Positions 1,021-57,136 are shown, numbered from the stretch's first letter. The stretch is 64,000 nt of DNA from Dictyostelium discoideum (GCA_000004695.1 CM000151.3:7584001-7648000), one strand, 5' to 3'. Notes: generated from the letters alone by a model not told the origin. Numbers and translations are program-made.

Positions 1021-1170
1021 TTCATTTACTTACGCAATGTTTTCCAGTGGAAGTTTAGCTATAAAATAACAATGGTTCATTAAATCTTCGTGTAAAATAA
1101 TTTTTTGTGAATAACTTCGATGTAATGGTGATTGAAAATGAAAAAAAAAAATAACATAAATAGTTTTTTT
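1021..1170 (+). promoter_or_regulatory. conserved promoter block of sHSP paralog copy 1 (GAA/TTC-rich, TATA-like cATAAATAg)
   Basis: About 150 bp upstream of the ATG at 1241 is about 85% identical to the block upstream of copy 2 (3941-4115). It contains TTCcagtgGAAg and GAAaatGAA blocks and ataaatag about 75 bp before the ATG. HSE-like but not canonical spacing. Confidence 0.35.
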
Positions 1171-1240
1171 TTTTTTTTTGATTAAAACAAAAACAAATAA
1201 ATAAATAAATAAATTAATAAATTGATAAATTAATCAGAAA

Positions 1241-1882
1241 ATGGCAACAATCTTTGATATTTTAAATACTCATAATAATAATAATAATTTTGAAAATTGT
1301 AAAAGACAATGCTCAACCAATAAAAGCAATAAAACGATAATTGATATACTACCATCAATGGATGTAACAATGACAAATGATAAACTAATCATTGAAACAG
1401 AGTTAGCAGGTATTTCAAAAGATCATATTGAAATTGACATTAAAGATTCAATACTCACTATTTAAGGTGAAAAGAAAAAGAATTTAAATAAACAACAACA
1501 ACAACAACAACAACAAAAACAATTAGTTATTGAAAAATCAACATCATCAACAACATCATTAGATAGAAAAGAAGATGAAGCATCAATTGAAGAGTTTGAA
1601 GATGATATTAAACCAAAATCAAAATCTGATAATACAACTGTATCTACAGCCACCACCACCACTAAAGAGAACAAAGAAGACGAAAATAAAACAAAATCAA
1701 CTGATAAAAAGTTTATTTCAGAAAGATCATTTGGTAATTTTAAAAGATATTTAGATTTAACAAAAATTTTATATCAATTAGATTTAAATTCAATCAATAC
1801 TCAATTTGAAAATGGTTTATTAACAATTACAATCAATAAGAAATTACATTATTCAAATACAATTAAAATTAATATAAATTAA
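1241..1882 (+). pseudogene. small heat-shock protein (alpha-crystallin/Hsp20 family, hspG-like) copy 1, with an in-frame TAA at 1463-1465
   Basis: ORF 1241-1465 (MATIFDIL...DIKDSILTI*) continues in the same frame after the TAA through ...[39 protein letters not shown] to a stop at 1880-1882. The alpha-crystallin-domain signature is intact (IxxxGExK ... FxRxxxLP ... NGxLxIxxPK-like). Copy 2 has CAA (Gln) where copy 1 has TAA. It is either a nonsense allele/pseudogene or a sequencing error. Confidence 0.55.
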
Positions 1883-2030
1883 CCAGTGACCACCTTTATT
1901 TTCCCTTCTCTATAATGTTAAATATTAAATAAAACAATAAAAAATAAAAAAAAGGAAAAAGAAATATTAAATTAAATATTTTTTTTTTTATTTAAAGTAT
2001 TTATTATTTTATTTTTGAATATATTGTGTG

Positions 2031-2048
2031 TTATTATTATTATTATTA

Positions 2049-2106
<58 letters not shown>
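2031..2106. repeat. (TTA)n microsatellite
   Basis: Uninterrupted tta repeats with one tgt variant. Confidence 0.9.
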
Positions 2107-2124
2107 CTAAATGTATTTTCACAA

Positions 2125-3242
2125 TTAAAAATTAATTTTATTTTTTGATATTACCATTACTGCTATAGAATAGGAATATTTAAAACCTAATTTTTCAATG
2201 AGAGAATTTGATTTAGTATTGTCATGTGCTGTTGAACATAGTGGTATAATATTATTTTCAATTGATGATAATGTTAATTTTGCTTTAACTTTTAATGCAA
2301 TACCTTTACATCTAAACTCTGGTAATGTAAATAAATTTGATGATTTTCCATCAGATTTAATAAAATTCCAACAAACTAAATTATTATTATTATAATAATT
2401 ATTAATATTGTTTTCATCATTTTCATCAACAACTCTATTGACTTTATTATTGTTATTATTATTAATTTTATAACCAAAAGCTAAACCATTTTCAATTGCC
2501 CAAAGTAATTCATTTATTGAAAATTCCGTTTTGTATCTATAATTGTCATCTATATAATATGCATCAGATTTTGATAAAGGAACAATATTATCATCATCTG
2601 AAATTATAGAATTTAATTTAGAAATTACTTTGGTTTTATTGTCAATATCATTAATATCAATAATATAATGATTAAAAGGAAATTTTTTAACTTCAAATCC
2701 ACATTCTTGGAAATATTCTTCAATGAATTTAACTAAAATTGGGTTTTCAATATCTCCAAAATAAAAAGTATTACTAAAAAAAAAAAAAAAAGGAAAAAAA
2801 AAAAAAATATACTTTATTAGTTTTGAAATAATATATATATATATATATTGCTAATTAAAATTAATTATTACATTTCATTTGAAAAATGATGATTTAAAAT
2901 TGCATCATTTAAATTTGTTTTTTTTAATAGTTCCTCCATTTCAATAGCATTTATACTATTTAAATATCCTTTTTCCCAATCAATTGATTTAATTACATTT
3001 TTAACGATTTTAAAATCTAGATTTTCATTATTTAATGTAAATAATTTTATAAAATTTGTAATTAATGATATTGATACTATTACACTCGGTGAATCATAAT
3101 TATCTGTAAAATATTCATATAATCCAATTTTAGTTTGGTTTTCAATAAAATCAAATTGAGGAAATCCTTTTGTTTTTTTGAAAAAACTTTTATCTTTTAT
3201 AGGTATTAATATTGATTTTTTATGATTTTCTTTTAATAACAT
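2125..3242 (-). CDS. hypothetical protein, 2 exons (3242..2872, 2773..2125), about 339 aa; C-terminus weakly GNAT-acetyltransferase-like
   Basis: ORF 2868-3242 (MLLKENHKK...HHFSNE) ends at a GTAATA donor (minus 2871-2866). After an acceptor ttttag (AG at 2775/2774), an unlisted 215-codon ORF continues in phase: I NTFYFGDIENPILVKFIEEYFQECGFEVKKF...FRCKGIALKVKAKLTLSSIENNIIPLCSTAHDNTKSNSLIEKLGFKYSYSIAVMVISKNKINF*. The R-x-K-G-I-A...N..S..L.EKLGF segment resembles GNAT motif A/B. Confidence 0.5.
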
Positions 3243-3940
3243 TTTTATTTATTTATAAATAGGAATAAAATTAAAAAAATGAATAAGTGTTTTTTTTCTT
3301 TATTATAATTTTATATGTTTTATATTTATTTTTTTTTTTTTCAATTTTTTTTTTAATTTCATTATTGTTAATTTGGTCTTCTAACTTAAATGTATAAACA
3401 TATCATTTTTTTTATATTTTTTTTTATTTTTTTTATTTATTTTTAGGGGGGTGGGGTGGTGTGGTAGGTCACATGTTTCACCAAAAATCATTTAAATTAA
3501 AAATTAAAGGTGTTTTAAATATAAAAAAAGGTTAAAAAATGCAGGATTTACTTTTTTTATATTTAGATTTATTTTAATTTTACAATCAAAATAAAATTAC
3601 GTTTTAATTTAACAGTTACCTTTTAAAAAATTAATATAAAAGACCCAAAATAACACTTAATCAATTAGTGAACAGAAAATGTTTTTAGGCAGTTGAAAGT
3701 TAATAATTTTTGTGGTGGTAATGATGGATAATCAGAATGCACCAAAATTATTTTTTATATTTTAATGTATTTCAATCCGATGAGAAAAATTTAAATAAAA
3801 ATTAAAAAAAAAAAAAAAAGTTATTTTTAGTGTTTAGTCTCTTTTTTTTTTTTTTTTTAAATTTTATTTCCAGATTTTTTACCCCTTTTTATTTTTTTTA
3901 TTTTTTTCAAAAATTTCATTTAATTTCCAATTATTTTTCA

Positions 3941-4115
3941 TTTATTCCTACAATGTTTTTCAGTGGAAGTTAAGTTATAAAATAGCAATGATTCATAAAA
4001 TGTTCGTGTAAAATAATTATTGTGAATGACTCCCATGTAATGGTGATTCACAACTTTAAGAATAAAAATATTTTCAAAATGAAAAAAAAATAATATAAAT
4101 AGTTTGAAAACCTTT
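3941..4115 (+). promoter_or_regulatory. conserved promoter block of sHSP paralog copy 2
   Basis: Paralogous to 1021-1170 (ttccagtggaagtt..., ...tgaaaaaaaaataatataaatagttt). It is followed by an (AAAT)n tract at 4143-4236. Confidence 0.35.
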
Positions 4116-4145
4116 CTTTTTTTTTTTCATTAAATCAAAAACAAA

Positions 4146-4197
<52 letters not shown>

Positions 4198-4266
4198 AGA
4201 TTAATAAATAAATAAATAAATAAATAATAAATTAATAAATTAATAAATTGATAAATTAATCAGAAA

Positions 4267-4516
4267 ATGGCAACAATCTTTGATATTTTAAATACTCTTA
4301 ATAATAATAATTTTGAAAATTGTAAAAGACAATGCTCAACCAATAAAAGCAATAAAACAATTATTGATATACTACCACCAATGGATGTAACAATTACAAA
4401 TGATAAACTAATCATTGAAACAGAGTTAGCAGGTATTTCAAAAGATCAAATTGAAATTGACATTAAAGATTCAATACTCACTATTCAAGGTGAAAGAAAA
4501 GATTTAAATAAACAAC

Positions 4517-4554
<38 letters not shown>

Positions 4555-4916
4555 TTAGTTATAGAAAAATCAACATCAACATCATCAACTTTTAGATAGA
4601 AAAGAAGATGAAGCATCAATTGAAGAAGTTTGAAGATGATATTAAACCAAAATCAAAATCTGACAACAGAACTGTATCTACTACAACCACCGCTACTAAA
4701 GAGAATAAAGAAGATGAAAATAAAACAAAATCAAGTGATAAAAAGTTTATTTCAGAAAGATCATTTGGTAATTTTAAAAGATATTTAGATTTAACAAAAG
4801 TTTTATATCAATTAGATTTATATTCAATCAATACTCAATTTGAAAATGGTTTATTAACAATTACAATCAATAAGAAATTACATTATTCAAATACAATTAA
4901 AATTAATATAAATTAA
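4267..4916 (+). pseudogene. small heat-shock protein (alpha-crystallin/Hsp20, hspG-like) copy 2, two frameshifts
   Basis: ORF 4267-4599 matches copy 1, then a 4-bp insertion (catcaACTTttagatag vs catcattagatag) and an extra A (gaagaAgtttgaa) move the frame twice. The C-terminal half (…[39 protein letters not shown]) is read in ORF 4608-4916. It is about 90% nt identical to copy 1. Confidence 0.5.
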
Positions 4917-5218
4917 CCAGTGACCACTTTTATTTTCCCTTCTTTATAATTCTGGAAATACATGTACATAATAATAAATAATAATACATTTAATAAAATA
5001 ATAAAATAAATACTTTTTGTAAAAACTTTAAAATAAATATGAAATTAATTTTTTCCTTTTTATGATTTTCTTTTTAAACTCTTTGATATGTATATATAAG
5101 TAATTATGAAAAAAATTTAAATTTATTTGATATGATTTTAAGACACGTATTAATTATAAACATCAAACTACAAATAGGGTTTTTTATTATATATATAAAA
5201 AAATTGTTGAAATTTTAT

Positions 5219-7516
5219 TTATTTGTTAATTTTTTTTAACTTGTTTAAAAGAACACTTTCACCTTTTTTACGATAAATTAAAAAACCAATTGCACCAATT
5301 GCGGAAACACCAACAACACTTGCAACTACAGCGACTGGGATAACATAACTTTTTCTTCCATCTTTTGAATTACCACATTCATTTTTAAATTCTGGACTAA
5401 TTAAGACTGAGAAATCTGGATCAATGATACAAGATTCAATGCAATGTGGTAAATCTAATGAAATTGAAATTGAATCCTTACTTTCATTTTTCATTGAAGT
5501 TAATAAATATGTTGGTCTTCCGTCTGAAACTAACTTGTTTATAAATCTTCCTTCTAAAATTTTATTATTTTTTGAAATTTTAATATAATTGAAAGTAGAT
5601 TCACCATCTTTATTATTGATTGTATTAATTGATGTATCCATTTCATTACATTCATTATCATCTGAATTTATTTGATCTACTGATGAAACTAATTCTAATT
5701 TTAAAGTATTTAAGTTATTTTTGTATGAATAGTTATAAATTCCAATACTAAATTTAATTGAACCATATTGTAAATTAAATGTTTCATCTGCAAATGTATA
5801 TTCTTTACCATTTCTGTTTGTAATTTCTTCAATCTTTGAAATAATTGAGCAATTGCTTTGAATTGTTTGAGATAATGTGTAAATAATTTCATTTTTGCTG
5901 TTTGTTGAATTTGTTGTCCAATTGTTTCGAAGAGAATATGTTGCTACTATATTACCATTAAAATCAATTTCGTATAATGATTTGAAAAAGATTTGGAATT
6001 GAACTTCTTGATTTGAAATTGTTGTATTACCAGTACCTGGATCGACACCAGTATCAGTTGGTGGGTTTCCGTTATTACCTCCATCGCTATCGCTATTGCT
6101 TCCTCCGTTATTACCTCCGCCTGGATTAATGATACCACTACAATCTGCACCATTGAATCCATTATTACATTTACATTGACCATTTAAAGTATTGCATGTA
6201 CCTTGATTTGAACATTTATTTGGACATGTTTGGTTATTAATATTTAAATATTGATATTTATCATAAGAGTATGTAATGTTATTTTGAGTTACAACTACAA
6301 GCTTTACACCAAAACCTGGAGGTGCTGTACAATTTAAAACTGTTGTTGAATTATATAGTAATGGACATGGTAAATTTCCAATTGTGATTGATAGATTATT
6401 ATGAGTATCACCAAAGAAGCCAATAAAGCTTGCAACACCACCATTGGTTGTTGAAGGTATTGTTGAAGTTATATAATGGTATGGTATTAAACAAGTTGGA
6501 CCTGACCAAGAATTTTCTTTACAATTGCATTCACCTTTAGTTGTGTCACATACACCATTTGAATTACAATCTAGTGGATCACACTCAATAAATAATATTG
6601 AACAATCACTACCTCGATGAGATGAATCACAAATACATTCACCTATGGTAGTATTGCAATAACCATTACCTGAACAATCTGGAACTGAACATTCAATACC
6701 TAAGCAATCACTACCTATAAATCCTGGTAAACATTTACAAGTACCTGAACTTAAATCGCAAATTGAATTAACTCCAACTGATGTTGAACAATCATTTGGA
6801 CAAACTTGATTATTATCGAAATTTGATTCGATCTTAATATATGCTTTTACATTGAATGAATCTTTTTCAATTGAAATTATTTGTAATGGAATTGTTGAAT
6901 TTGAAATTGGTAATTGTTTACCACTTTCCATTGTACATTGTGCTCCGAAAAAGTCACTACTTGTAATTGTTGAACAATTACCTACATTTTGAATTTGAAC
7001 TTGTTGATTTGTAAATCCTAAATAACTTGAAAAATGTGTACCACTTACTTGAATTTCATTACCTGTGCTTTTAATTAAAACTGATTTTATAATTGGTGGA
7101 ATATTATAATTTGTTGGGAATGTATATGTAACATTATTTGGAGTTGTGAATAAAACTGGAAAATATTCAACATTTTTCAAATTATTATTAGCTCCTACCA
7201 TTGTTGCTGTATAATTTTTACCATTTTGATTAATAACATATGTTGTTGGATCTAATGAAATTGTTAAATTAATTTTCCATAATGTTACATCGAATCCAAT
7301 ATCATTACCAGTTACCATTACTTTATTAAATATACCATCATTAATTAATTCTACTTTTGGTCTAAATGTTGTGCATGGTGTATTTGTATTAAAGTTTGAA
7401 AACTTATTACTAGCAAATCTTGAAAACATTGATTTTTGTGTTAATTTTGAATAACTATTTACTGTTGTTACATTAAAATAACATGCAAAACAAGATGGAA
7501 CTAATCTGAATATTTG

Positions 7517-7583
<67 letters not shown>

Positions 7584-9090
7584 ATTAATAAAAATAAGAA
7601 TTATGATAATAAAGAAATAATAATTAAAACCATACCCTGTTAAATTTCCCAGTGAAACAGCTATTTCAGTTGTGCACCATGATTTATCAATTGTGCCAGT
7701 AAATTTGGTTGTTCCTGTAAAATCAAATGAACCACCAGAACCTAAAAAAGGAGGGAATTGTTCACTTTTTATTGAATTTTGAAAATTTGTTGTAATATCT
7801 GGATTAAAATTTAGATTGTTTGGGAAAACTGTTAAATAACCTCCTATAAAGGATATTTCAATATTCTTTGGAACAATTAAGGGAAATGATCCATTGATAT
7901 TAAATGATGTCCCAGGAACCAATGTAATGGATTTATAAGTGTGGTTTTTAAATAATGTTATATCAAAGAATTCCTTTGGTTTCTTGAATATTGCTGAAAC
8001 ATATATATAAGGAATAATAGAATTATCAAATATATATTGATCTAATGTAGCATTTTGATTGAATGTATCATAGATTGTTAGCATTCCTGATTGATCAGTA
8101 ATTTGTAATTTCTTTAAAAATGAAATAGTTGAGTAATCAAATCTTGGAGAAATTTTAAATGTAACACCTCTTAATTTTTTATAACTTGATAAATCTGATA
8201 TACTATTCAAAGAAATTCTAAAATTTGTTAAGATTGATGATTCATCTGAATTTGCTCCATCTGTATTTAAATAATAATAACTATCAGATGAAAACATATT
8301 TAATGAATATGTAACTTTATCTAAATACTGCATTCTAAATATTGTATTATTTAAGTCATCGCTAAATAATTCACTTAAAATTATTTATTTTTGAAAAAAT
8401 TAAAATTATTTTAATATTATATATATATATATCTATGTATTAACATATAAAACAAAAATTATATTTTACATTAATCTATATGCAGGTAGAGGTTGTGTAA
8501 TTCCACCTAATATTCCAGAAATATTTGAATACCTTACTGTATTGGCAGCTGGAAATTTGTAATATATAAAATTTGGGGTCACTTTTAAATTTTTAACTAT
8601 TCTAAAATTATTATTTAATTACTATTAATATATTTTTTGGAATTATTTTTGACTAAAAAAAAAAAAAAAAACATACAATTCATCCATTTGAGGAAAGCAA
8701 TTTACAAAATTTAATGGGTCTAATATATTATCTGTTCCACCACTATTCAAAGCTAATCTAAAAAAAAAATAAAAAAAAAAAAAAAATAAAAAATTATTAG
8801 TTAATAATTTAAAAAAATCTAATTATTATATTTTAAATAAAAAAAATGAAATAAAAATAATTAATTTACGTTTTAATATTTAGATTGGTCGTGCAAACTA
8901 TATCAGTATTAGCGGTTGTACATATATCAACATATTGGTTATTGGTATCTTTGGTGAATTTTAAAAGGTTATAATCTTGTATCAATGTTGACAAACAATT
9001 ATATTCACTCGGAATAGGATTGACTGATAAACAACCAATAAAATTTAAAAATATTAAAAAAAGTAGTAATTTAAATTTTAACGAAATCAT
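5219..9090 (-). CDS. gene A: secreted/type-I membrane protein with IPT/TIG domain, EGF-like Cys repeats, one C-terminal TM helix and a short basic tail; 5 exons, about 1152 aa
   Basis: Exons (minus): 9090..8870 (MISLKFKLLLFLIFLNFIGCLSVNPIPSEYNC..., signal peptide; donor GTAAAT), 8757..8677 (…LALNSGGTDNILDPLNFVNCFPQMDE; donor GTATGT), 8601..8470 (…IVKNLKVTPNFIYYKFPAANTVRYSNISGILGGITQPLPAYRL; donor GTAAAA), 8373..7636 (ORF 7473-8333 region; donor GTATGG), 7505..5219 (ORF 5219-7429 extended upstream to the acceptor tattcag). All phases are consistent (2/1 across every intron). Domain calls: PPIIKSVLIKSTGNEIQVSGTHF is TIG-like; CxCxxGFxGxDC repeats are EGF-like; SYVIPVAVVASVVGVSAIGAIGFLIYRKKGE is a TM helix plus stop-transfer. 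Confidence 0.75.
7521..7581. repeat. A61 homopolymer inside intron 4 of gene A
   Basis: 61 consecutive A on the + strand. The intron runs 7635..7506. Confidence 0.95.
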
Positions 9091-9643
9091 TTTATTTGTT
9101 ATATAATGAAACGAATTAAAAAAAAAAAAAAAATCAAAAAATTTAGAAAGAAACTTGCTGAAAATGTTCATTGTTTTTTTTTCTTTTTTTTTTAAAAAAT
9201 ATCTGAAAAAATCTCCTATGTTGACGTTTTGTGTATTTTTTTTTTTTTTTTTTTCTCTGAAACAAATTGTTATTTTTTTTTTTTTTTTTAAAAACCATGT
9301 GTTTTTATTAAAGTTTTTTTTTTTTTTTTTTTTTTTTAGATATTTTCTAAAAATATCTTTTTTTTTTGACGATTTTGTTTCTGATAAGGGTGATTGGATG
9401 TACAAAAAATTTAAGCATTAAATTGGTGAAAAGTAATTTTATGTGGCTCTGGTGGGTTTGTCGCCTTTTTTTTTTTTTTTACTTTTATTTTTTTATTTTC
9501 TATGAGACTACCCTTAATTAGTTTCTGATCAGGACCTTTTTTTTAAGACACGTATTAATTATAAACATCAAACTACAAATAGGGTTTTTTATTATATATA
9601 AAAAAAAATTGATGAGAAAATTAAAAAATTGTTGAAATTTTAT

Positions 9644-12600
9644 TTATTTGTTAATTTTTTTTAACTTGTTTAAAAGAACACTTTCACCTTTTTTACGATA
9701 AATTAAAAAACCAATTGCACCAATTGCGGAAACACCAACAACACTTGCAACTACAGCGACTGGGATAACATAACTTTTTCTTCCATCTTTTGAATTACCA
9801 CATTCATTTTTAAATTCTGGACTAATTAAGACTGAGAAATCTGGATCAATGATACAAGATTCAATGCAATGTGGTAAATCTAATGAAATTGAAATTGAAT
9901 CCTTACTTTCATTTTTCATTGAAGTTATTAAATATGTTGGTCTTCCGTCTGAAACTAACTTGTTTATAAATCTTCCTTCTAAAATTTTATTATTTTTTGA
10001 AATTTTAATATAGTTGAAAGTAGATTCACCATCTTTATTATTGATTGTATTAATTGATGTATCCATTTCATTACATTCATTATCATCTGAATTTATTTGA
10101 TCTACTGATGAAACTAATTCTAATTTTAAAGTATTTAAATTATTTTTGTATGAATAGTTATGAATTCCAATACTAAATTTAATTGAACCATATTGTAAAT
10201 TAAATGTTTCATCTGCAAATGTATATTCTTTACCATTTCTGTTTGTAATTTCTTCAATCTTTGAAATAATTGAGCAATTGCTTTGAATTGTTTGAGATAA
10301 TGTGTAAATAATTTCATTTTCGGTATCTGTTGAGTTTGTTGTCCAACTGTTTTGAAGAGAATATGTTGCTACTATATTACCATTAAAATCAATTTCGTAT
10401 AATGATTTGAAAAAGATTTGGAATTGAACTTCTTGATTTGAAATTGTTGTATTACCAGTACCTGGATCGACACCAGTATCAGTTGGTGGGTTTCCGTTAT
10501 TACCTCCATCGCTATCGCTATTGCTTCCTCCGTTATTACCTCCGCCTGGATTAATGATACCACTACAATCTGCACCATTGAATCCATTATTACATTTACA
10601 TTGACCATTTAAAGTATTGCATGTACCTTGATTTGAACATTTATTTGGACATGTTTGATTGTTAATATTTAAATATTGATATTTATTATAAGAGTATGTA
10701 ATGTTATTTTGAGCTACAACTACAAGCTTTACACCAAAACCTGGAGGTGCTGTACAATTTAAAACTGTTGTTGAATTATATAGTAATGGACATGGTAAAT
10801 TTCCAATTGTGATTGATAGATTATTATGAGTATCACCAAAGAAGCCAATAAAGCTTGCAACACCACCATTGGTTGTTGAAGGTATTGTTGAAGTTATATA
10901 ATGGTATGGTATTAAACAAGTTGGACCTGACCAAGAATTTTCTTTACAATTGCATTCACCTTTAATTGTATCACACACACCGTTTGAATTACAATCTACT
11001 GGATCACAATCAATATATGGTAATGAACAGTCACTACCTTGATTTGAAGGTCCACAATCACAAGTACCAGTTTGATTATTACATGTATTTAAACCACCAT
11101 TACATGCTACCCCAGTAGTCATTGGACATTCAACAAATGGTACTGAGCAATCATTTCCTTGGTGAGATGAATCACAATTACAAATACCAGTTTCATTATT
11201 ACATGTATTTAAACCACCATTGCATGGTAATCCATTAGATTCTGGACAATCAATTACTGGTAATGAGCAATCACTTCCTTGGTGAGATGAATCACAATTA
11301 CAAGTACCAGTTTGATTATTACATGTATTTAAACCACCATTACATGGCAATCCATTAGATGTTGGGCAATCAATTACTGGCAATGAGCAATCACTACCTT
11401 GATTTGAAGGTCCACAATCACAAGTACCAGTTTGATTATTACATGTATTTAAACCACCGTTACATGGTAATGAACTGAATATTGGACATGGAACCAATGG
11501 CAATGAGCAATTACTTCCTTGAAACGATGAGCTACAATTACAAGTACCAGTTTGGTTATTACATGTATTTAAACCACCGTTACATGGTAATCCACTAACT
11601 ATTGGGCATTCAATCAATGGTAATGAGCAATCACTTCCTTGGTGAGATGAATCACAACCACAAGTACCAGTTTGATTATTACAAGTGTTTAGACCGCCGT
11701 TACATGGTAATCCACTAACAATTGGGCATTCAATCAATGGTAATGAGCAATCATTTCCTTGGTGAGATGAATCACAACCACAAGTACCAGTTTTATTATT
11801 ACAAGTGTTTAAACCACCGTTACATGGTAATCCACTAACTATTGGGCATTCAATCAATGGTAATGAGCAATCATTTCCTTGGTGAGATGAATCACAAGTA
11901 CAAATACCAGTTTGATTATTACAAGTATTTGAGCCGCCATTACATGGTAAAGAGCCATAAATTGGACAAGGAATGAGTGGTAATAAACAATCGCTACCTT
12001 GATAAGATGAATTACAAATACATTCACCTATGGTATAATCACAATGACCATTACCTGAACAATCTGGAACTGAACATTCAATACCTAAACAATCACTACC
12101 AACAAATCCTGGTAAACATTTACAAGCACCTGAACTTAAATCGCAAATTGAATTAACTCCAACTGATGTTGAACAATCATTTGGACAAACTTGATTATTA
12201 TCGAAATTTGATTCGATCTTAATATATGCTTTTACATTGAATGAATCTTTTTCAATTGAAATTATTTGTAATGGAATTGTTGAATTTGAAATTGGTAATT
12301 GTTTACCACTTTCCATTGTACATTGTGCTCCGAAAAAGTCACTACTTGTAATTGTTGAACAATTACCTACATTTTGAATTTGAACTTGTTGATTTGTAAA
12401 TCCTAAATAACTTGAAAAATGTGTACCACTTACTTGAATTTCATTACCTGTGCTTTTAATTAAAACTGATTTTATAATTGGTGGAATATTATAATTTGTT
12501 GGGAATGTATATGTAACATTATTTGGAGTTGTGAATAAAACTGGAAAATATTCAACATTTTTCAAATTATTATTAGCTCCTACCATTGTTGCTGTATAAT

Positions 12601-14450
12601 TTTTACCATTTTGATTAATAACATATGTTGTTGGATCTAATGAAATTGTTAAATTAATTTTCCATAATGTTACATCGAATCCAATATCATTACCAGTTAC
12701 CATTACTTTATTAAATATACCATCATTAATTAATTCTACTTTTGGTCTAAATGTTGTGCATGGTGTTTTTGTATTAAAGTTTGAAAACTTATTACCAGAA
12801 AATCTTGTCAACATTGATTTTTGTGTTAATTTTGAATAACTATTTATCGTTGTTACATTAAAATAACACGCAAAACAAGATGGAATTAATCTAAATTTTT
12901 AAATTAATAAAAAAAAATAAAGATTAGTAAGTAATTTGAATAAATAAATAATTTATAATCAACATACCCTGTTAAATTTCCAGTTGGGACAGATAGTTCA
13001 GTTGTGCACCATGAATTATCAACTGTACCAACAAAAAGATTTGGAGAATTTGTAAAATAATATGAACCACCAGAACCTAGAAATTTTGTGGGGAATTGTG
13101 TATTTTTTATTGAATTAAAGAAGGAAACTGTAGAATATGGACCCATATTAAGGTTATTTGGAAAAACCGTCAAGTTACCTGATAAAAAATTAAAATCACA
13201 ACTCTCTGGAGGAATTATTGGGAGTGCCCCATTCAAATGATAAAGATTTCCTGGAAAAAGGGTAATTGCTGTATAGGTGTGATTAACGAATGATGACATA
13301 TCATAATATTCAGTTGGTGCATCAAGTGTCGCACTTAGATAAAATTTTGATACTTTTGAATTGTCAAATAAATATTGATTAATTTGTCCAAGAGCACGGT
13401 ATATTGATAATTGATTGGATGATATTGTTTTCATAAAATTAATAGTTGAAAAATCAAATATTAGAGAAAATTGTAAATTTATATTGTTTAATTTGTACAT
13501 TGAAAAAGATACTATGTTATGTACATTGGCATAAAAATTCCCTAATACTGAGGTTCCAGATGGATTTGCGCCATCAGAGTTTAGATAAACATATACATTA
13601 GCAGGAGAAATGTCCAAATTATATATTCCACTATTAATATGCTCCAATCTCAATGTTGTACCATTTAAATCATTTGAATGTATAGTCCTTTTTATTTTTA
13701 AAATAAAAAAAAATAAAAAAAATAAAAAAAATAAAAAAATAAATAAATGAATAAAATTTATGTAAGAAATAAGAATTAGATTTTAGTTTTTTTTTTTTTT
13801 TTGTTTTTTTTTTTTTTATAGAAAATAAATATTTACAAGGATCTAATTGAAGGTAAAGGTTGAGTAATTCCACCTACCACTCCATTAATATTGATATACT
13901 TTGCTATTTGGACACTGGATATTTTTGTATATATAAAATCTGGTGATACTTTTAAATTATTAACCGTTCTTTAATAATAATAATTTTCAATTTTTTAGTA
14001 AATAATTTTGTTGAGAAAAAAAAAAAAAAAAAATTTAAAATACTTACAATTCCACCATCAGAGTAAAACAGGTTGAGAAATTAGATGGAAATAATATATT
14101 ATTTGTACCACCAGGTATTAAAAACCATCCTAAAAATAAAAAAATAAAAAAATAAAAATTTAATATTTATTAGTTTTGATATTAAATTAAAAAAAAAAAT
14201 TAAAAAATTAAAAAATTAAAATTAAACTTATTTCTTTTGAATATAAATTCCCAGAACAAGAAATATCAATTGTGGTGGTTGACAAATGTTTGAATAAAAA
14301 TCGAATGTGTCTTTTGTGAAATTTGGTAGAATAAAAATTTCATTTAAATAACCAACACGTATATTCATCTGGAACAAGAGGGGGGACTTGAGAATAACAC
14401 CCGACAATTATTAAAAATATAAAAAAAAGTTGAGATTTAATTAAAACCAT
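9644..14450 (-). CDS. gene B: tandem paralog of gene A (IPT/TIG + EGF-like repeat type-I membrane protein) with an expanded Cys-repeat array; 5' exon 1 appears decayed
   Basis: Exons (minus): 12890..9644 (1082 codons; ORF 9644-12814 extended to the acceptor aaatttag), 13687..12968 (donor GTATGT), 13968..13837 (…TVNNLKVSPDFIYTKISSVQIAKYININGVVGGITQPLPSIRSL; donor GTAAAT), 14129..14048 (GWFLIPGGTNNILFPSNFSTCFTLMVE; donor GTAAGT). Putative exon 1 is 14450..about 14235 (MVLIKSQLFFIFLIIVGCYSQVPPLVPDEYTCW...). Exon 1 has an in-frame TGA, a frameshift relative to gene A, no recognisable GT donor (GAAATAAGTTTAA where A has CGTAAATTAAT), and a phase mismatch with exon 2 (82 nt vs 81 nt in A). Confidence 0.6.
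11000..12000 (-). repeat. in-frame 120-bp (40-aa) tandem repeat array, about 8 copies, encoding CDSSHQG(N/S)DCSLPLIECPIVSGLPCNGGLNTCNNQTGTC units
   Basis: Consecutive copies are 90-100% identical at the nt level (e.g. 11161-11280 vs 11281-11400). The array is absent from gene A, which jumps from CICDSSHRGSDCSILFIECDPLDCNSNG directly to the shared C-terminal region. Confidence 0.85.
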
Positions 14451-14465
14451 TTTTTTTAATTATTG

Positions 14466-14517
<52 letters not shown>

Positions 14518-16197
14518 TAAAAAAAAAAAAAAAAAAAACCTTTCTAATATTCAGATGACTTTTTAATATTGATTAAAAAAAAAAAAAAAAAAAAAAAACC
14601 TGTTACATTGGGATGACGAAAAAAAAAAAAAAATAAAAAAAAAATAAAATTAATTGGTGAAGTGTTGTCTGGTTTTTGAATGGTTGGTTTTTAAAAAAAA
14701 ACGAAGAAAAATGCATTTTTTTTTATTAAATGTCAAAATATCTTTAAAAATATCTTTTTTTCATTTGATTTCGTCGATGATGTTTTGATTTTTTTTTTTT
14801 GTGCGTCAAAACGATCGTTCTTTTTTTTTTCCAAGCATTTCATAGAACGATTGTTTTTGTAAATTGGTATTTTTTTTTTTTTATTTTATTTTAAACGAAT
14901 ATGAACCAGTTTAAAAATTTCCTTTGATACCACCTGTTGACTGTTGTTTTTTTTTTTAAAAAAAAAAAAGATATTTTTTTTTTTCCATTATTTTCAATAT
15001 TAATTCTTAAAATATTTTTTTTTTTTTTTTTTTTTTTATTATTATTGAAAACTAAATAAAAGAGTATTTAATTTTTGGGGGAAACTTATATTTTTTTTTT
15101 TTTTTTTTTTTTTTTCCAAACAAAAATATTTTTTCCTAAAAAATCAAAAATTTTTAATAATTTGAAAATTTCCCCAAATTTTTTTTTTACAAATTTCCCG
15201 GGGGAAAAACCAAAGTATAACAATTTTTCGGGTATAGTATGGGGAGTTCCCCAAACTTTCCCCCCAATTAAATTTTTCCTAGTAAATCCTTTTTTCTAAA
15301 AAAAAAAAAAAAACCCAAAATTTTGCTTTGGGAAATTAATTTTTTAAAAAGTTTTATTTTAGTATCACTATTATTTTTAAGTTTTCTAAACAAAAGGGTT
15401 GTATTTTTATCCTTTTTAAAAATATTGGTTTTTTTTTTTTTTTTTTTTTTTTTTGATCAAATTTTTTTTTTTCTTGTTTTTTTAACCAAAAAAAAAAATA
15501 AAAAAAAAAAAATAAAAAATAAAAAATAAAAAAAATGGATTTTTTTTTTTTTAATTAAAATCTTTTTAAATTGATTCAACTTATTGCTTGGTGATTAAAT
15601 TAGATTATTTCGCAATTATTTTCTAGTATTGAAAATTAATTTTAATTTTTTATACTTTTTAAAAAAAAACAAAAAAAAAAAAAATAAATTAAAATTATTT
15701 TCAATTGATTTTTGGGGGTATAAATATCTTTTTTTAATTAGACACACATTTCAAAACATAAATGGCATCTTAAAAAAAAAAAAATAATAAAAATAATAAA
15801 AAAAATAAAACTCTAATTCGCAATAATCCTCCTATTTCAATATTAATATAACATAATAATACAAGCTTATTTTTAGTTTTTTTAATATAACCTTAGTAAT
15901 AAAAAAAAAAAAAAGATATTTTTAATAAAAAAAAAATCTAAATTTATTTTTTTATTTTTTTTATTTATTTTTTTATTTTTTAAAGGTGGGTCTGTTAATT
16001 TTTTTTTTTTTTTGAAAATAATTAAACAATAAAAACACTTTTTTTTATTTTTTATTTTTTTTAAATTAATTACAACAAAAAAAAATAAAAAATAAAAAAA
16101 AAAAAAAAAGAAAAATTCGAACCCCTTTTATCTTTTGAAAGTAAATTAAAAAAAAAAAGTGTTTATTTTTAACTATAGCATTAACCTTTTTTAAAAA

Positions 16198-27717: not shown

Positions 27718-29725
27718 TACATTTATTACATTTAATATTAATAAAAAATTTATAAATATATAAATATATAAATATATTATTTTTTAATTATTAAATAACC
27801 TTTTTTTTTTAAAATTTGTAAGTTTTAAATACTTTTATTCGAAATTATAATATGTTTTTTACAAAAAACACACCCACAACAATAGCAACAAATAAATTCT
27901 TTTTTTTTTTTTTTTATTTTCCAAATATTTTTTTTATAAATTTAATTTGACTGTTTTATTTTATTATTTTTTTGTTTCTTTAATAAAAATATTCAAATAA
28001 ATCAATACCCAATTACAAATCAATTTTTGATGTATTTTTTGATTTATTCTATTAATTGTTTAGAATTAAAAAAAAAAAAAAAAAAAAAAAAACAATAACT
28101 CCAATATATATTGTTTAAAATAAAAACAAAACAATAACAATATTATTATTATTATTTTCATACCCGAAAACCACCCATTTAAAACTCATTATTAGAATAT
28201 TTCCTTATTATTATTAAAAAAAAAAAAAAAAAAAACACCCCAAAATATAAATGGAATGATTGTTTTTGGAAGTGGGATAATAATAAAAAAAAATTTTATT
28301 TGTAAAATAAAATAAAAATCCCAAAAAAACTCAATTTGTGTGTATGTATGTGTGCTATTTCAAAAAAAAAAAAAAAAATTTATATTACCTTTTTATTTTA
28401 ATATTAAAAATTAAATAATTTTATTTAATTTTTTCACCTAATATGATCTAAAATGGATTTAAAATCGATATTTTCCATTAATGGATATCATTTATTATTG
28501 TATTAAATTAATTCTTAACAAGATTGACAATTATATCCATCTTTTTAATATTATCACACCACCACAACCACAACCACAACCACACACCATATTATCACAA
28601 GATTAAATACAAACAAATCATACACCAAACTTTAATTAATAAAAAACACACATATATAATAGTCATCGAACTATTTTAAATTGTTTTTGTTGTTTTTTTT
28701 TTTTTTTTTTTTTTTAATTCAAACAACACCTTATTTGGGCATATTTTAAATTTAATAAATTAAAATCTTTAAGTAAATCTTTTTTTAAAATTTACCCCAC
28801 CCCACACTTTTTTTAAAAACCACACACATCTTTTATTTTTACACGTCCATACAGAATTATTGTTTTTTTCATTGTGCAGTGTTATTTTTGTGTGGTCTGT
28901 GTGAGTGCGTGGGTAAAATGGGAATGTGCCTTTGTTTAGTGGATAAAATGGACAATGTGTGGATTTGTTTTTTTATTTTTTATTTTTTTTTTTTTTTCTT
29001 TTTATTATAAAAAATAATTAATAATAATTAATCAACGACAAAAATGTCTGATTATTATGTTGTGGTTTTTAAATTTTTGATGACTATTATGATGATGGGA
29101 ATATAATCATTAATATGGTGATGATGAATACCACCATTGATTGAAAAAAATAAAATAAAATAAAAAAAATAAAAAAAAATAAAAAATAATAATAAAAATA
29201 ATTATTTGGATTAAAATAAAAAATTAAAATTTAAAAAATTATCATTTTAATTTTCTCACCACTACCAAAAAAAAAAAAAAATAAATATTTATTTATTATC
29301 AATTTATATCACATAAAAAAGAATTTTTTTTTTTTTTTTTCCAATATTTTCATATTTATTTCATTCCTTCACATTTTTTTTTTTTTTTACCTTAATAAAA
29401 AATAAAAAAAAAAAAATAAAAAAAAAAAAAAAATAATAATAAAACAATTTAATTAATATAGATAAAACAGTAAATATTATTTTATTATTTATATAAAAAA
29501 ATTTTGAAAAAATTTAAAAAAATAATAATAATAATAATAATAACAATAATTAAAATAAAATCATATTATTTTCATTTACACAGAGCATCAAATTTGTATT
29601 TTTAATTTTATTTATTTCCATTTTAATAAATTTTTTTTTTTTTCAAAAAATATTATGTTTTTTTTTTTATTTTTTTTAATTAATTAAAAAAATATATCAA
29701 AGTAATATCAAAAATATATTTAATT

Positions 29726-29763
<38 letters not shown>

Positions 29764-30123
29764 ATTAATTAATTAATTTTTTTTTTTTCAATTTTTTTTT
29801 CCAACACCACAATCACATATTTGTTTTTTTTTTTTTTTTTTTTTTTCATTATTCATCAATTTCAAAAAAATACAAAAGTAATAATAGTTTTTTTTATTAT
29901 TTAATTATCATATAATTTTTTATTTGATTAAAAAAAAAAAAAAAATTAAAAAAAAAATTAAAAAAAACGAACGATCATAATAAATCAATTATTGGAATTG
30001 TTTATTTTTTTTTTTTCAATAATAAACAATAATCACTATCACAAAAAATATAAAAAAAATAAAAAAAAATAAAAAAAAACACTGCTCACACACTCACACT
30101 CGTGTTCATTATATCATTTTTTC

Positions 30124-30124
<1 letters not shown>

Positions 30125-30214
<90 letters not shown>
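30125..30214. repeat. A90 homopolymer
   Basis: 90 consecutive A residues between ttcc and gcgtttggccagc. Confidence 0.95.
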
Positions 30215-30215
<1 letters not shown>

Positions 30216-31233
30216 CGTTTGGCCAGCAGTTCAAAATTATATTAACCAAAAAAATTTCTTATATTTAGGTATTTTTCACATAATTTTATAAAATATATAT
30301 TACAACGAGTCGATATTTTTTAATTATTATTTTTATTATCAAATTATAGATTTTCCACCCTTATTTTTTTTTTTTTTTTTAAATTAATAACAACAATCAA
30401 AACACTAATTATAGTTCAACACACATACACACACACACCCATAAATAAATATATATATAAATTATTCAAAAAACAACAATAGCAATATTATTATACACTT
30501 TTTTTCTTTAATAATTTTATTTTTTCAATTTTTTTTTTTTTTTTTTTATAAATAATATTAAATAAATATATCACACCCACCACTGTATACATTTCAACAA
30601 CAATAATTATAAATAACAACATTGCAATAACAATAATATTTATTGAACCCACTCAATAATACTATCATAACTACTACATTTTTAATCATTTCAATAAAAA
30701 GAGAAAAAAGAAAAAAGTAAACAAATTATATAAATATACACTCACTCATTAAAAAATAAAAATAAAAAAAAAATAAATAAAAATATTTTCAACACATATA
30801 CACACACACGCACACACATACATAGATAAAAATTATTTATTTGTAATAAACACACTCAAATATACCACACCCAAATATATCAATTAACACTTTAACACAC
30901 TAGCACACAGTTCAATCTTTGCTAGCAACATACAAAAAACATACCCAAAAACTAAAAAAAGAATAATCTTTTTAAATAATTTGTATTTGTGAGTGAAAAC
31001 ATTTCAAAAAATCATATACTCACACTTAACCCAATAAGATCAAGAATTAATCGATATAGTGTGGTGATACTATATTCAAAAAAAAAAAAAAAAAAAACAC
31101 TCTCTCTAATAAAAATAATAATAATAATATTATTATTATTAAATTTAACATACCCCACAAATACACACAACACTACCCACTCACAAACACCCACTAAAAA
31201 AAAATTTACATTGTTTTTACTATATAATACAAA

Positions 31234-31284
31234 ATGATGGGGGAATTTCATACACAATTTCAACAAATAAAACAAAATAATATA

Positions 31285-31315
<31 letters not shown>

Positions 31316-31507
31316 GTAATAATAATAATAATTTTGATCCAATAACATCACTAACAAATAATAATAATAATAAAATTATTTCACCATTAAATTCAAATCG
31401 TCAACAACCAAATTCAAATACAAATAATAATAGTAATAATAAAAATAATAATAAATCAAATCTTTTAGATATTATATTAGACAATAATAATTTAGAAAAT
31501 AATATTG

Positions 31508-31570
<63 letters not shown>

Positions 31571-31607
31571 GTAAATCAATAATTAATTTAATAGATAATA
31601 ATAATAA

Positions 31608-31648
<41 letters not shown>

Positions 31649-33080
31649 TTTTAAAAATACCCATTGATTATACTCCTGTCGATAAAAATACAGAGTCCAT
31701 TTTTAAAGGTTTTTCGCCATTTAGTTTTAAACAACAACAACCAATAGACACATCAGATCAACAACAAAAAGAAACTAAAAAACTTCAATTAAATATAAAT
31801 AGTAATAACAAAAATAATAATAATATTATTAATAATAGTAATAATAATAATAACATTAATAATATCGAAAGTAATAACAATAATTTAAATTCAGCATCTA
31901 CATCACCAATACCAACACCAACATCATTAACAGCAGTTAGTGTTCCATCAAGTTCTCCATTACCATCGCCTACTTCACCAAATACTATTTTACAATCGCC
32001 AACAACTACAACAACTACAACTACAACAACCTCAAATTCATCCGTTTCTCCTCAACCAACTCAAATAAATAAAACTGATAAATATTTACTTCCAATGAGT
32101 GCACCAAGAAGTTGTGAATTTTGTGGCTCATCACAAACCCCAACATGGAGAAGAGGTCCATCTGGCAAAGGTTCATTATGTAATGCCTGTGGTATTAAAT
32201 GGAGATTAAAAGGTAAAGACGGTATTTTCAAGCCATCACAAAAACAACAAAATCGTCAAAAACCAATTATGTCTGCTCAAAAACAACCAAAACAACAACA
32301 AAACCAACCACAACAACAACAACCACAACAACCACAACAACCTCAACAACCTCAACAACAAAATCAACAACAAAATCAACAACAATCTATTCAATCACAA
32401 CCACAACAGAGACAAAATAACCATTTAATTTTAAATCAACAAACAATTAACCAACATCTTCAAATGTTAAGTAAACAACATCAACAACAAGCTTCCCAAT
32501 CAATGTTCCAACAACAACAACTTCATAATAACCAACATAGTAATGATAGTAATTATAATTCTTATAACAATAACAATAATAATAACAATAACAATTACTC
32601 ACAACATGAACAATTACCACCAATTTCTTCTTATAATTCAATGAATAATAATAATAATAGTAATAATAGTAATAATAACAATAACAATAATAATTATTCA
32701 CAAATTCCACAATATGGTAGTGATGATAATGTATCAGTTCCAAATCAATCACCAGATTCTTATAAGCCATCTAAAAAAAGAAAGCCAGAATTTATCCATA
32801 CCGACACCTCTGGCAATCCAATTGAATTTGAAAAAGGATACTATTGTAAATATTGTAAAAAAACTTGGCCTCAATCATCATTTAGAAATAGTCAACAATT
32901 TGGTGCTCATTGTAGTAATTGCTCCAGAAAACCAAAAGGTGAACTTGAAGAATTAATCTCAATTAAAAAGAAACTCTCTAAAAAGAAATCAAAAGAAGGA
33001 AACTATTATCAAGAAGAAGATGGGGCTGTACCATATTGGGATATGAATAGATATAATAATAATAATAATAATAATAATGG

Positions 33081-33127
<47 letters not shown>

Positions 33128-33933
33128 GTAATAATAATGGTTCTTATAACAATAATAATAGTAATAATAACAATAACAATAATAGAATTGAACCTATTGT
33201 AAATAACAACATTAATAATTTTAATAGCATTAATAATAATAATAGTAATAATAATAATAATAATAATTCGACCTCTCAAAATGCTCCATTACTTCAAAGA
33301 TTAATTCATGTTGTTGAAAATCAATTATTAGAACCAAATGAATTAAGTTCAATAAGAGAAGATATTGATGTAAGTTTTTTTTTTTTTTTTTTATAATTCT
33401 ATTAAATAATTTTTTAATACTAATTTTTTATTTATTATTATTACTACTAGATAATGAAAAATGATTTAATTTTAAGAAAGAAAAAGAGAATTGCACAATT
33501 AAATGATTTAAAACAAAAAGCAAATAATGATGTTCAAATTTTGAAAGCAAATATTGAAAAAGGATCCAATCAACGTTCTAATGAGTCCAAGTCTTTCATC
33601 ACCGACTTAAAACAAGAAATCGATAAGAGACTCAATCAATACACCCATATATATATCCCACCTGACCATCACTTGGTACCATCTTCAACAAACTATCTAA
33701 GTATTGATAGTTTACAAAATTCTTCCTCTTCAAATAATTATGGAACCATCCATAATAGCAACAACAATAACAATAACAATAATAACAATAACAAAAGATC
33801 ACTTGTTAATTTATCCCCTGAACTTATTCATTCTCCATTAAAGAAACCAATGGTTGGTGGTTATCGTGATGAACAAGGAATGAAACATTTTTCAATTGAT
33901 GGTGATAATTTATCTTTACCATCAATTTCATAA
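31234..33933 (+). CDS. GATA-type zinc-finger transcription factor with very long poly-Asn/poly-Gln regions; 2 exons (31234..33369, 33451..33933), about 873 aa
   Basis: Canonical GATA finger [35 protein letters not shown] (C-x2-C-x17-C-x2-C plus basic tail). A second Cys cluster is [31 protein letters not shown]. The intron is GTAAGT at 33370 ... ctag at 33447-33450, in phase 0. The 3' exon is ORF 33454-33933. Upstream at about 30400-31230 is an A/C-rich, T-poor stretch typical of a Dictyostelium 5' UTR. Confidence 0.8.
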
Positions 33934-34013
33934 TAAAATTTTAATAAATAAATAAAAAATTCATTTATATACATATAAAAATATATTTCTAAAAATAAAA
34001 CAAAACTAAAATT

Positions 34014-55970: not shown

Positions 55971-56019
55971 ATATACTCATTATTTTCTTAATGATGTGAC
56001 TTCAATTCGGTCATTTTCT

Positions 56020-56064
<45 letters not shown>

Positions 56065-56819
56065 GTAATATAAATAATATTAATCATGTATATATTGTCC
56101 ATTCATATGTACATGTATTTAATATTTGTTAAATAATATCTAAATTAATAATAACAAAAAAACAAAAAAAAAAAATTAACAAAAAAATAAAATAAAAATA
56201 AAAAACCTTTAATATAGTAAAATAAAAAAAAAAAACAAAATATCAATATGCATTTATATATAAAAAGTCTTTGAATTATTTATTATTTCACAACTATTAA
56301 AGATAATAATTGATAATTTTTTTATTTCATTTTTTTTTTTTTTAATTCTCAAAAATTTAAATTTAAAAAAAAGAGCATTCTGGAAATTACTTTCCAAGTT
56401 TTTTTTTAAAAAAAAAATAGACTTTAAAAGTTGTTTAAGATGTATATGTTTTATATTTTTAAAAATTATTAACCATTTCCAAGTTTCAAAAAAAAAAAAA
56501 GTTTAAAAATATAATAATATAAATAATTTATTTATTTTATTTGAAAAAATAAGGTCTACAAGAATGCCCATTTTTTTTTTTTTCAGTTAAGAAACCTACC
56601 AAATAATAAAAGTGTTTTTCAACCACCAAATATTTTTATTTTATTTTATTTTTTTTTTTTTATTTTTTCTCACACACCACACTTGATTTGGGAGTAAAAT
56701 ATTAAAATTAAAAACAAAGTAAATTCTATGATTGGTAGTTCTTTACACCTATTTTAATTAAGTTTTTTTTTTATTTTTTTATTTTTTTATTTTTTTTTTA
56801 TTTTTATTTTAAATAATAT

Positions 56820-56877
<58 letters not shown>

Positions 56878-56935
56878 AATTTAATCTTTTAAAAAAAAAC
56901 CTCAAACCAATAAAAAAAAAAAAAATTTATACCTA

Positions 56936-56977
<42 letters not shown>

Positions 56978-57136
56978 TTACCAATCTAATAAAAAAATAA
57001 ATTTAATATAAAACAAAATATTAATTTAAAATTAATTTTTATAAAAAAAAAAAAAAAAAAAAAAAAAATAGTAAATTGAATTAATTACTATTTTGCTTTT
57101 TTTTTTTTTTTAAAAAAAAAAGTAAATTAACTCATA

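Follow-up and report, generated by a model that had tools for sequence, protein, structure and literature searches.

This work reports on two adjacent genes in a 64,000-nucleotide (nt) stretch of the Dictyostelium discoideum AX4 genome, taken to be part of chromosome 2 (GCA_000004695.1, CM000151.3:7584001-7648000; this whole stretch is called the window, and positions are counted from its first letter). DDB_G0277127 (gene B) lies upstream along the direction of transcription and DDB_G0276959 (gene A) downstream. We consider it likely that the two are an old tandem pair of the ComC family, in which exon 5 has been homogenised by recurrent gene conversion and the leucine-rich repeat (LRR) heads encoded ahead of it serve as specificity modules in cell-cell communication or adhesion. 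The head-to-tail tandem of paralogs proposed in an earlier note on this DNA was borne out, both being five-exon genes on the minus strand, and the databases annotate them just as hypothetical EGF-like proteins. In the order of the encoded parts, a signal peptide and a ComC-type LRR domain are followed by two ComC beta-sandwiches, epidermal growth factor (EGF) modules, a weak IPT/TIG domain, one more EGF, the ComC_SSD supersandwich domain, a transmembrane helix and a basic tail.

The homogenised tract in AX4 comprises the whole of exon 5 plus 83 nt of 3′ flank (Table 1). Its 3′ end is abrupt, with identity collapsing at 5135/9540, and its 5′ end lies within the last 15-30 nt of intron 4, near the exon-5 acceptor. 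The earlier note had described the 3′ 1.4 kb as about 99% identical down to synonymous sites; the near-identity stands, as does the homogenisation of synonymous sites, with a synonymous divergence (dS, Nei-Gojobori 1986) of 0.040 in the 3′ part of exon 5 against 0.89 in the LRR core, but the interval is 97.9% identical and the tract is larger. Upstream, nucleotide identity is 56% in exon 1, 70% in exon 2, 71% in exon 3 and 63% in the LRR-encoding exon 4, and the protein parts encoded there are 49% identical, where roughly 50% had first been given for these exons. The upstream regions of the two genes are unrelated. Equal divergence along the whole unit, which had been named as an outcome that would speak against conversion, was therefore not found: exon 5 stands at 97-98.5% and exons 1-4 at 56-71%. 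The 47 sites at which A and B still differ within exon 5 are clustered, with nine at the 5′ end, about 24 flanking the EGF array, and seven in an island of 33 nt (5896-5928).

The syntenic locus, which lies between a set of TRAPP, CHMP7/Snf7 and fatty-acid hydroxylase genes and an HSP20 array, was taken from six further genomes besides AX4, and copy numbers were read directly from these loci rather than from homology searches. The initial protein homology search had missed every B-type protein, and a search with the gene B LRR exon gave no matches although the B protein is in the collection, so that absence there is not evidence. Two ComC-type genes occupy the site in D. discoideum ACTFIW (L005) and ACTFIR (L007) and in D. 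cf. discoideum ACTFIY (L003), three in D. cf. discoideum ACTFIZ (L002), and one each in D. citrinum (L004) and D. firmibasis (L006). The assemblies appear to come from a ten-genome study, in which the other genomes of the complex are regarded as diverged isolates or cryptic species, and which treats the tgr genes and leaves comC and EGF proteins unmentioned (PMC12745789).

In an alignment of 11 genes, most windows of 200 columns in exon 5 show 98-100% identity between paralogs of one genome, with lower values confined to the borders of the EGF array and, except in AX4, to the 3′ end; orthologs among the discoideum-complex genomes are mostly at 93-98%. The LRR exons show the reverse, with paralogs at about 60% and orthologs at 80-96% (sliding identity). 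The ongoing conversion suggested earlier for the 3′ part is thus upheld by six genomes, since exon-5 paralogs are closer to each other (dS 0.02-0.09) than orthologs are (0.11-0.25). For the 3′ part, paralog dS is 0.040-0.047 in ACTFIZ and 0.093 in ACTFIY, beside the AX4 value, and over both parts it is 0.019-0.029 in ACTFIR, against 0.11-0.25 for the 3′ part of genes in different genomes. The LRR cores of paralogs differ by 0.85-0.97, and the flanking hydroxylase gene gives 0.10-0.17 between AX4 and the rest of the complex, and 0.46 and 0.44 between AX4 and D. citrinum and D. firmibasis, respectively. Gene A of ACTFIW, which carries 1-nt indels that are possibly Nanopore errors, was excluded from the exon-5 codon analyses. 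Neighbour-joining trees separate the same two regions: the LRR exon groups by orthology, into an A clade with the third ACTFIZ copy as its sister and a B clade that includes D. citrinum (100% bootstrap), and both halves of exon 5 cluster by genome (99-100% bootstrap).

The ends of the tracts differ between lineages. The segment encoding the transmembrane helix and tail groups by orthology, except that AX4 gene A falls inside the B clade; gene A of ACTFIR, ACTFIW, ACTFIY and ACTFIZ ends in a different tail of 19 amino acids (aa), of the form RRKI...NNIK, and the B-type tail is found on gene A only in the AX4/AX2 lineage. Because of this tail and of the position of AX4 gene A among B genes, the tract that reaches 83 nt past the stop codon is, as read from the trees, a B-to-A conversion specific to AX4/AX2. 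At the island 5896-5928, AX4 and ACTFIY keep separate A- and B-type states, all three ACTFIZ copies are A-type, and both ACTFIW copies are B-type; therefore, transfers run both ways. These comparisons demonstrate recurrent, patchy and bidirectional interlocus gene conversion that is confined to exon 5 and has lineage-specific tract ends.

The pair itself is old. An LRR dS of about 0.9 is about double the synonymous divergence from D. citrinum or D. firmibasis, which implies that A and B split about twice as long ago as the lineages leading to these species; therefore, D. citrinum and D. firmibasis would have lost one copy at this site. Birth and death of copies, with 1-3 genes per genome, is documented by the syntenic loci. 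The third ACTFIZ gene (L002, 14268-18273; 1231 aa, P0004) lies downstream of the A ortholog. Its LRR is A-like, with 64% aa identity to AX4 A, its tail is of the A type, it has two extra EGF units, and its exon 5 is homogenised with the other two copies; its divergence from A amounts to a dS of about 0.36-0.51. Stalk length varies as well. In gene B a 960-nt insert separates the two near-identical blocks of exon 5 and makes its stalk eight EGF modules longer than that of A; Tandem Repeats Finder resolves the array at a period of 120, with 7.8 copies and 86% matches, and the count of extra units across genes and genomes is 0, 1, 2, 7, 8 or 10. Unequal exchange within the 120-nt EGF array is thereby shown to alter stalk length.

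A mosaic was also seen among the ComC-family proteins P0011, P0012 and P0013 of D. purpureum. P0011 and P0012, which share a 73-kb contig, have 62% identity in the N-terminus and 90% over the C-terminal 480 aa, and for P0011 and P0013 the figures are 100% over 201 N-terminal residues and 86% in the C-terminal part. Exchange of segments may be a general feature of the ComC family, or the D. purpureum draft assembly may be redundant.

By their domain content, both genes unambiguously encode ComC-family type-I membrane proteins, every domain looked for in the family having been found. Pfam LRR_ComC (PF24141; cut-off 27 bits) matches A with E 1.1e-28 (101 bits) and B with E 4.6e-28 (99 bits); Beta-sand_ComC_1st (PF24142) with E 1e-24 and 1.7e-24, Beta-sand_ComC_2nd (PF24143) with E 9e-24 and 1.5e-23, and ComC_SSD (PF22933) with E 3.1e-80 and 1.4e-79, the full profile (1-222) being covered. 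EGF_2 matches three stretches of A (E 1.7e-14) and ten of B (E 6e-29), and the six-cysteine EGF pattern occurs 3 times in A and 11 times in B. The hydrophobic N-terminus (MISLKFKLLLFLIFLNFIGC) is a putative signal peptide, and the transmembrane segment YVIPVAVVASVVGVSAIGAIGFLIY is followed by a 17-aa cytoplasmic tail without any catalytic domain. The parts list of the earlier note thus holds for signal peptide, EGF repeats, transmembrane helix, short basic tail and the presence of a TIG domain, but its order was wrong: the N-terminal domain taken there for IPT/TIG is a ComC-type LRR, and the lone TIG is internal, between EGF blocks. The profile search proposed for TIG and EGF accordingly found EGF in both proteins, but TIG in A only, as a single match whose 20.9 bits equal the cut-off exactly, with none listed for B.

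An AlphaFold2 model of the gene A protein, built with an 18-sequence family alignment as input, has a mean predicted local distance difference test (pLDDT) score of 75, with a signal helix at residues 2-18, a transmembrane helix at 1115-1150, and stalk domains that are all-beta. Some 14 short strands recur in it at regular intervals, as is typical of LRR solenoids (pLDDT 85-91). Searched whole (1152 aa) against the Protein Data Bank (PDB) with Foldseek, it returned domain-level matches with low template-modelling scores and modest search scores, which were used only to confirm the TIG fold (CAMTA1, EBF3, plexin/MET IPT) and the supersandwich fold (YidC P1 domain, GH65 N-domain, GLMP luminal domain). 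The best PDB matches were the luminal domain of GLMP, a lysosomal membrane glycoprotein, and the YidC and GH65 supersandwich domains. We tentatively attribute these to the predicted ComC_SSD at about residues 875-1093 of A (6061-5402), and they hint at a carbohydrate-binding-like fold beside the membrane.

ComC, the founder of the family, has the same domains in the same order, namely LRR_ComC, two beta-sandwiches, an EGF array and the supersandwich, with a signal peptide and one transmembrane segment, and as for comC, all close relatives found of A and B are from Dictyostelium species. Neither gene is comC itself, which is DDB_G0271692 and encodes 1501 aa (PMC4931340); both are comC paralogs. 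They differ from comC as two or three tandem copies that exchange sequence, a situation undescribed for comC in the literature searched. That literature, searched by gene ID, contained no study naming either gene, and the search for comC with lagC or tgrC1 yielded no study of the two; the one match, to a neighbouring gene ID, was an unrelated expression table.

The distal ectodomain was expected from the earlier note to escape conversion and to evolve fast, and it does both, as the ratio of nonsynonymous to synonymous divergence (omega) is 0.3-1.3 in the LRR and 0.10-0.19 in the membrane-proximal part, and counts of nonsynonymous and synonymous differences in LRR and stalk differ with Fisher p from 4e-8 to 3e-3. 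For the LRR core, omega is 0.97-1.30 between B orthologs within the discoideum complex, 0.34-0.97 between A orthologs and 0.33-0.6 in deeper comparisons; it is 0.10-0.19 for the EGF-TIG-SSD part of exon 5, 0.17-0.58 for the beta-sandwich part, and 0.06-0.18 for the flanking hydroxylase gene (0.25 in one close pair). Between AX4 and the other complex members, nonsynonymous divergence (dN) is 0.05-0.19 in the LRR and 0.014-0.027 in the flank, the head protein thus changing 3-13 times faster than the flanking gene, and dS of the LRR (0.06-0.18) equals that of the flank. There is no sign, in these comparisons, of long-lived balanced alleles, because the locus does not exceed the flank in synonymous divergence. 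The predicted LRR strands hold an about 2-fold excess of variable sites (B, p 0.014; A, p 0.044), which lends weak support to change on the predicted face of the LRR sheet.

Fast change of this kind could also arise if the LRR head drifted under relaxed constraint, as in a redundant duplicate of which only stalk and anchor matter. This we regard as possible, if doubtful. An omega near 1 and changes spread over the whole LRR domain are what such drift would leave, and possible pseudogene-like lesions occur in D. firmibasis and ACTFIW. However, the LRR exon is not decaying: it is open in all 11 aligned copies, with every indel a multiple of three, and neutral substitution simulated to the observed divergence leaves a frame without stop with a probability of just 0.002-0.04 per comparison. 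In addition, the LRR motif positions are invariant, and omega falls to 0.33-0.6 in the deeper comparisons, which means some constraint.

Several observations weigh against the account of specificity-bearing heads on a converted stalk. Omega near 1 is not significantly above 1 and does not demonstrate positive selection. The N-terminus is the fastest part of every ComC-family member, even between plain orthologs (64-67% vs 83-86% identity), and therefore the mosaic is in part a matter of uneven rates. The D. firmibasis gene (L006, about 11702-14119) has an in-frame stop just before the transmembrane segment, and gene A of ACTFIW (L005, about 13100-13650) has several 1-nt indels in the ComC_SSD region; these lesions may mark dispensable members and pseudogenisation, or may be residual long-read errors. 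The homopolymer in intron 4 can be put forward as a conversion barrier by inference, and the functional part of the account draws on the analogy with ComC only.

A polymorphic allorecognition or kin-recognition locus like tgrB1/tgrC1, with variable heads as the marks of identity and perhaps with binding between the two products, appears improbable. The tgrB1 and tgrC1 genes are divergently transcribed, whereas A and B stand head-to-tail, both on the minus strand. Membership of the tgr family, which the earlier note had raised, is contradicted by the proteins, which carry LRR_ComC, the beta-sandwiches, EGF and ComC_SSD (E 1e-24 to 3e-80) and one marginal TIG; the Tgr ectodomain consists of IPT/TIG repeats, and in A and B the variable part is the LRR. 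The two systems do resemble each other: in both, neighbouring genes of a social amoeba encode surface glycoproteins that span the membrane once and whose ectodomains evolve fast, paralogs recombine or undergo conversion, and copy number differs among isolates (PMC12745789). The heads of A and B, fast-evolving yet open, with variable sites that lean to the predicted strand face, would suit such a role, as would the differences in copy number and EGF stalk length among isolates and the part that ComC plays in intercellular communication. However, extreme intraspecific polymorphism and receptor-ligand pairing, shown for Tgr, would be conjecture for A and B; synonymous divergence between isolates stays at the level of the flank; a two-component lock and key is not conserved in D. 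citrinum and D. firmibasis, with their single gene at the site; and the N-terminus is fast throughout the family. A recognition role as such is plausible by analogy. It is unlikely, though it can be proposed, that the heads of A, B and, in one isolate, the third copy form a second recognition system of the D. discoideum complex, independent of tgr, in which fast-diversifying heads would encode the identity of partner or kin, conversion would fix the stalk and anchor, and gained or lost EGF units would tune the reach of each head from the membrane.

That the identity goes back to a single recent event, for example partial duplication or one replacement of exon 5, with no continuing conversion, is very improbable: AX4 alone cannot tell one event from many, but six genomes each have their own within-genome homogenisation, all three ACTFIZ copies are included in it, and single replacement is ruled out by lineage-specific tracts, the tail being converted only in AX4/AX2 and the island in opposite ways in ACTFIZ and ACTFIW. 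Scarcely credible is an artefact or plain purifying selection, as assembly collapse, which the low-quality stretches of the AX4 reference nearby might suggest, is ruled out by an independent long-read assembly of the same lab lineage (AX4/AX2; GCA_054883475.1, L001) that reproduces all 47 exon-5 differences exactly, and selection alone by homogenised synonymous sites (dS 0.04 vs 0.9), which are beyond the reach of selection on the protein.

Based on these findings, we propose that conversion between the tandem ComC-type genes would hold a shared module of stalk, anchor and tail uniform. At its 5′ side, conversion would stop at intron 4, where homology upstream (about 63%) may be too low and the T61 tract of gene A may add to the limit; this tract is 30 nt shorter in L001. 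At the 3′ side, the recent B-to-A tract of AX4/AX2 takes in the tail and the first 83 nt of the flank, and the similarity of the copies ends there abruptly. Unequal exchange in the EGF array changes stalk length, from 0 to 10 extra units. The LRR heads could act as modules that bind ligands and determine specificity, with relaxed and/or diversifying selection on them, and they would be carried at different heights by a shared, conserved part that serves anchoring and signalling. Because just 17 residues are cytoplasmic, signalling would probably go through partners and not through the short tail itself. From the ComC analogy we infer a role in developmental cell-cell communication or adhesion; in the comC mutant, aggregation and streaming are aberrant and sporulation is defective in a cell-non-autonomous manner (PMC4931340).

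The gene models differ in their source. Gene A was obtained by threading P0001 through the DNA. Gene B was derived from L001, where a single stop-free solution with four introns exists, and then mapped onto window coordinates; its product is identical to KAM9946366.1 and shares a 90% cluster with XP_642991.1 (DDB_G0277127). In the window, indels disrupt the reading frame of gene B exons 1-2. L001 has zero substitutions against the window over 5100-14100, and a cluster of 30 differences lies at 14115-14360, where the frame is intact in L001 and in the sister species, which sides with L001. The frame-breaking differences are therefore most likely reference sequence errors in low-quality AX4 stretches, which would break exons 1-2 and explain why the AX4 model of DDB_G0277127 was cut to 1387 aa through contrived introns; that model is wrong at its 5′ end. 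A second cluster of about 55 positions differing from L001 was seen at 15100-15450, and both clusters show a smearing of neighbouring bases, for example GGGGAACTCCCCATAC vs GAGTAACTCCACATAC.

Table 1. Coordinates of the two ComC-type genes and of their homogenised and diverged segments in the window
Feature	Position	Strand	Remark
Gene A, DDB_G0276959	5219..9090	-	1152 aa; spliced translation matches database protein P0001 exactly
Gene A exons	9090-8870, 8757-8677, 8601-8470, 8373-7636, 7505-5219 (incl. stop)	-	P0001 threaded through the DNA
Gene A exon 4, main part of ComC-type LRR head	7636..8373	-	LRR_ComC; 63% nt identity to B, unhomogenised
T61 homopolymer (T on coding strand), gene A intron 4	7521..7581	-	Directly 5′ of the conversion boundary
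Gene A exon 5, 5′ block	6591..7505	-	Two ComC beta-sandwiches and first EGFs; homogenised with B 11976-12890
Gene A exon 5, 3′ block and 83-nt flank	5136..6590	-	EGF, TIG, EGF, Gly/Asn linker, ComC_SSD, transmembrane helix, tail; vs B 9541-11015
IPT/TIG domain, gene A	6248..6415	-	Pfam TIG 20.9 bits; between EGF blocks
Unconverted island in ComC_SSD region	5896..5928	-	7 differences in 33 nt vs B 10321-10353; A-type NSTNSKNE, B-type NSTDTENE
Gene A transmembrane helix	5347-5273	-	Translation
Gene A basic tail, 17 aa	5272-5222	-	RKKGESVLLNKLKKINK; translation
Gene B, DDB_G0277127	9644..14450	-	1465 aa product
Gene B exons	14450-14235, 14129-14048, 13968-13837, 13687-12968, 12890-9644 (incl. stop)	-	Mapped from L001
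Gene B exon 4, ComC-type LRR head	12968..13687	-	LRR_ComC E 4.6e-28
B-only insert	11016..11975	-	960 nt, eight 120-nt (40-aa) EGF units of PCNGGxNTCNNQTG type
Gene B transmembrane helix	9772-9698	-	Translation
Gene B tail, 17 aa	9697-9647	-	Identical to that of A; translation
Exon 5 3′ part and 3′ flank, A vs B	5136-6618 vs 9541-11043		96.9% (blastn)
Exon 5 5′ part, A vs B	6601-7536 vs 11986-12921		96.9% (blastn)
Interval of the earlier note, A vs B	5219-6640		97.9% (1392/1422)
Coding sequence 3′ of EGF array, A vs B	5219-6590		98.5%; perfect runs to 306 nt
Coding sequence 5′ of EGF array (915 nt), A vs B	6591-7505 vs 11976-12890	-	97.0%; 639-nt perfect run at 7381-6743
83 nt past the stop codon, A vs B	5136-5218		98.8%
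Difference cluster vs L001	14115..14360	-	30 differences incl. 5 indel positions; gene B exons 1-2 and intron 1

The surroundings of the pair are strongly AT-rich, with 14-32% GC in the window, and tblastn found no further ComC-type gene in its 64 kb. The other large open reading frames are ordinary, encoding a RhoGEF, a GATA factor, a Ski2/Mtr4-type helicase, a Lon protease, a kinase and a beta-helix protein. Downstream of gene A, at 1135-5100, a unit repeated in tandem carries a GNAT/FR47 acetyltransferase gene (about 2128-3258) together with small HSP20 genes, such as the one at 4267-4916 and a copy near 1191-1916. The copies of this array are 84-94% identical and their count differs among genomes, making it a second copy-number-variable array beside the ComC pair. 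Strong negative GC skew (to -0.53) with positive AT skew was observed at 28000-34000, spanning the GATA-factor gene region 31234-33396, and at 56000-58000, and these stretches probably reflect Asn/Gln-rich simple coding repeats.

Among known systems, the tomato Cf-4/Cf-9 (Hcr9) genes are tandem genes for extracellular LRR proteins with one transmembrane segment and a short tail, in which exchange keeps the C-terminal part near-identical and the variable N-terminal LRRs carry the specificity of pathogen recognition. They differ from A and B in being of an unrelated LRR type and from another kingdom, without EGF, TIG or supersandwich stalk domains. In animal paired receptors the ligand-binding domain is often the homogenised part, whereas in A and B the ligand-distal head escapes and stalk and anchor are homogenised. 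By analogy, LRR clusters of the Cf-4/Cf-9 type and animal receptors that partly escape concerted evolution would be the closest evolutionary parallels. For the latter, CEACAM paralogs are more alike than orthologs through gene conversion, with some segments or members escaping (PMC7042247).

In conclusion, two genes labelled hypothetical EGF-like can be assigned to the ComC family and set apart from tgr, which guards against a misleading analogy, and the reference model of DDB_G0277127 can be corrected at its 5′ end. Gene conversion between tandem duplicates is textbook, and the conceptual gain would be modest unless a recognition function were demonstrated; it is a known process in an unstudied family, unsurprising in kind, and useful for annotation and as an experimental lead. 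Seen in six genomes, the locus is a clean case from a social amoeba of concerted evolution limited to certain domains, and it makes the ComC LRR head a candidate for the part that determines specificity in cell-cell communication during development.

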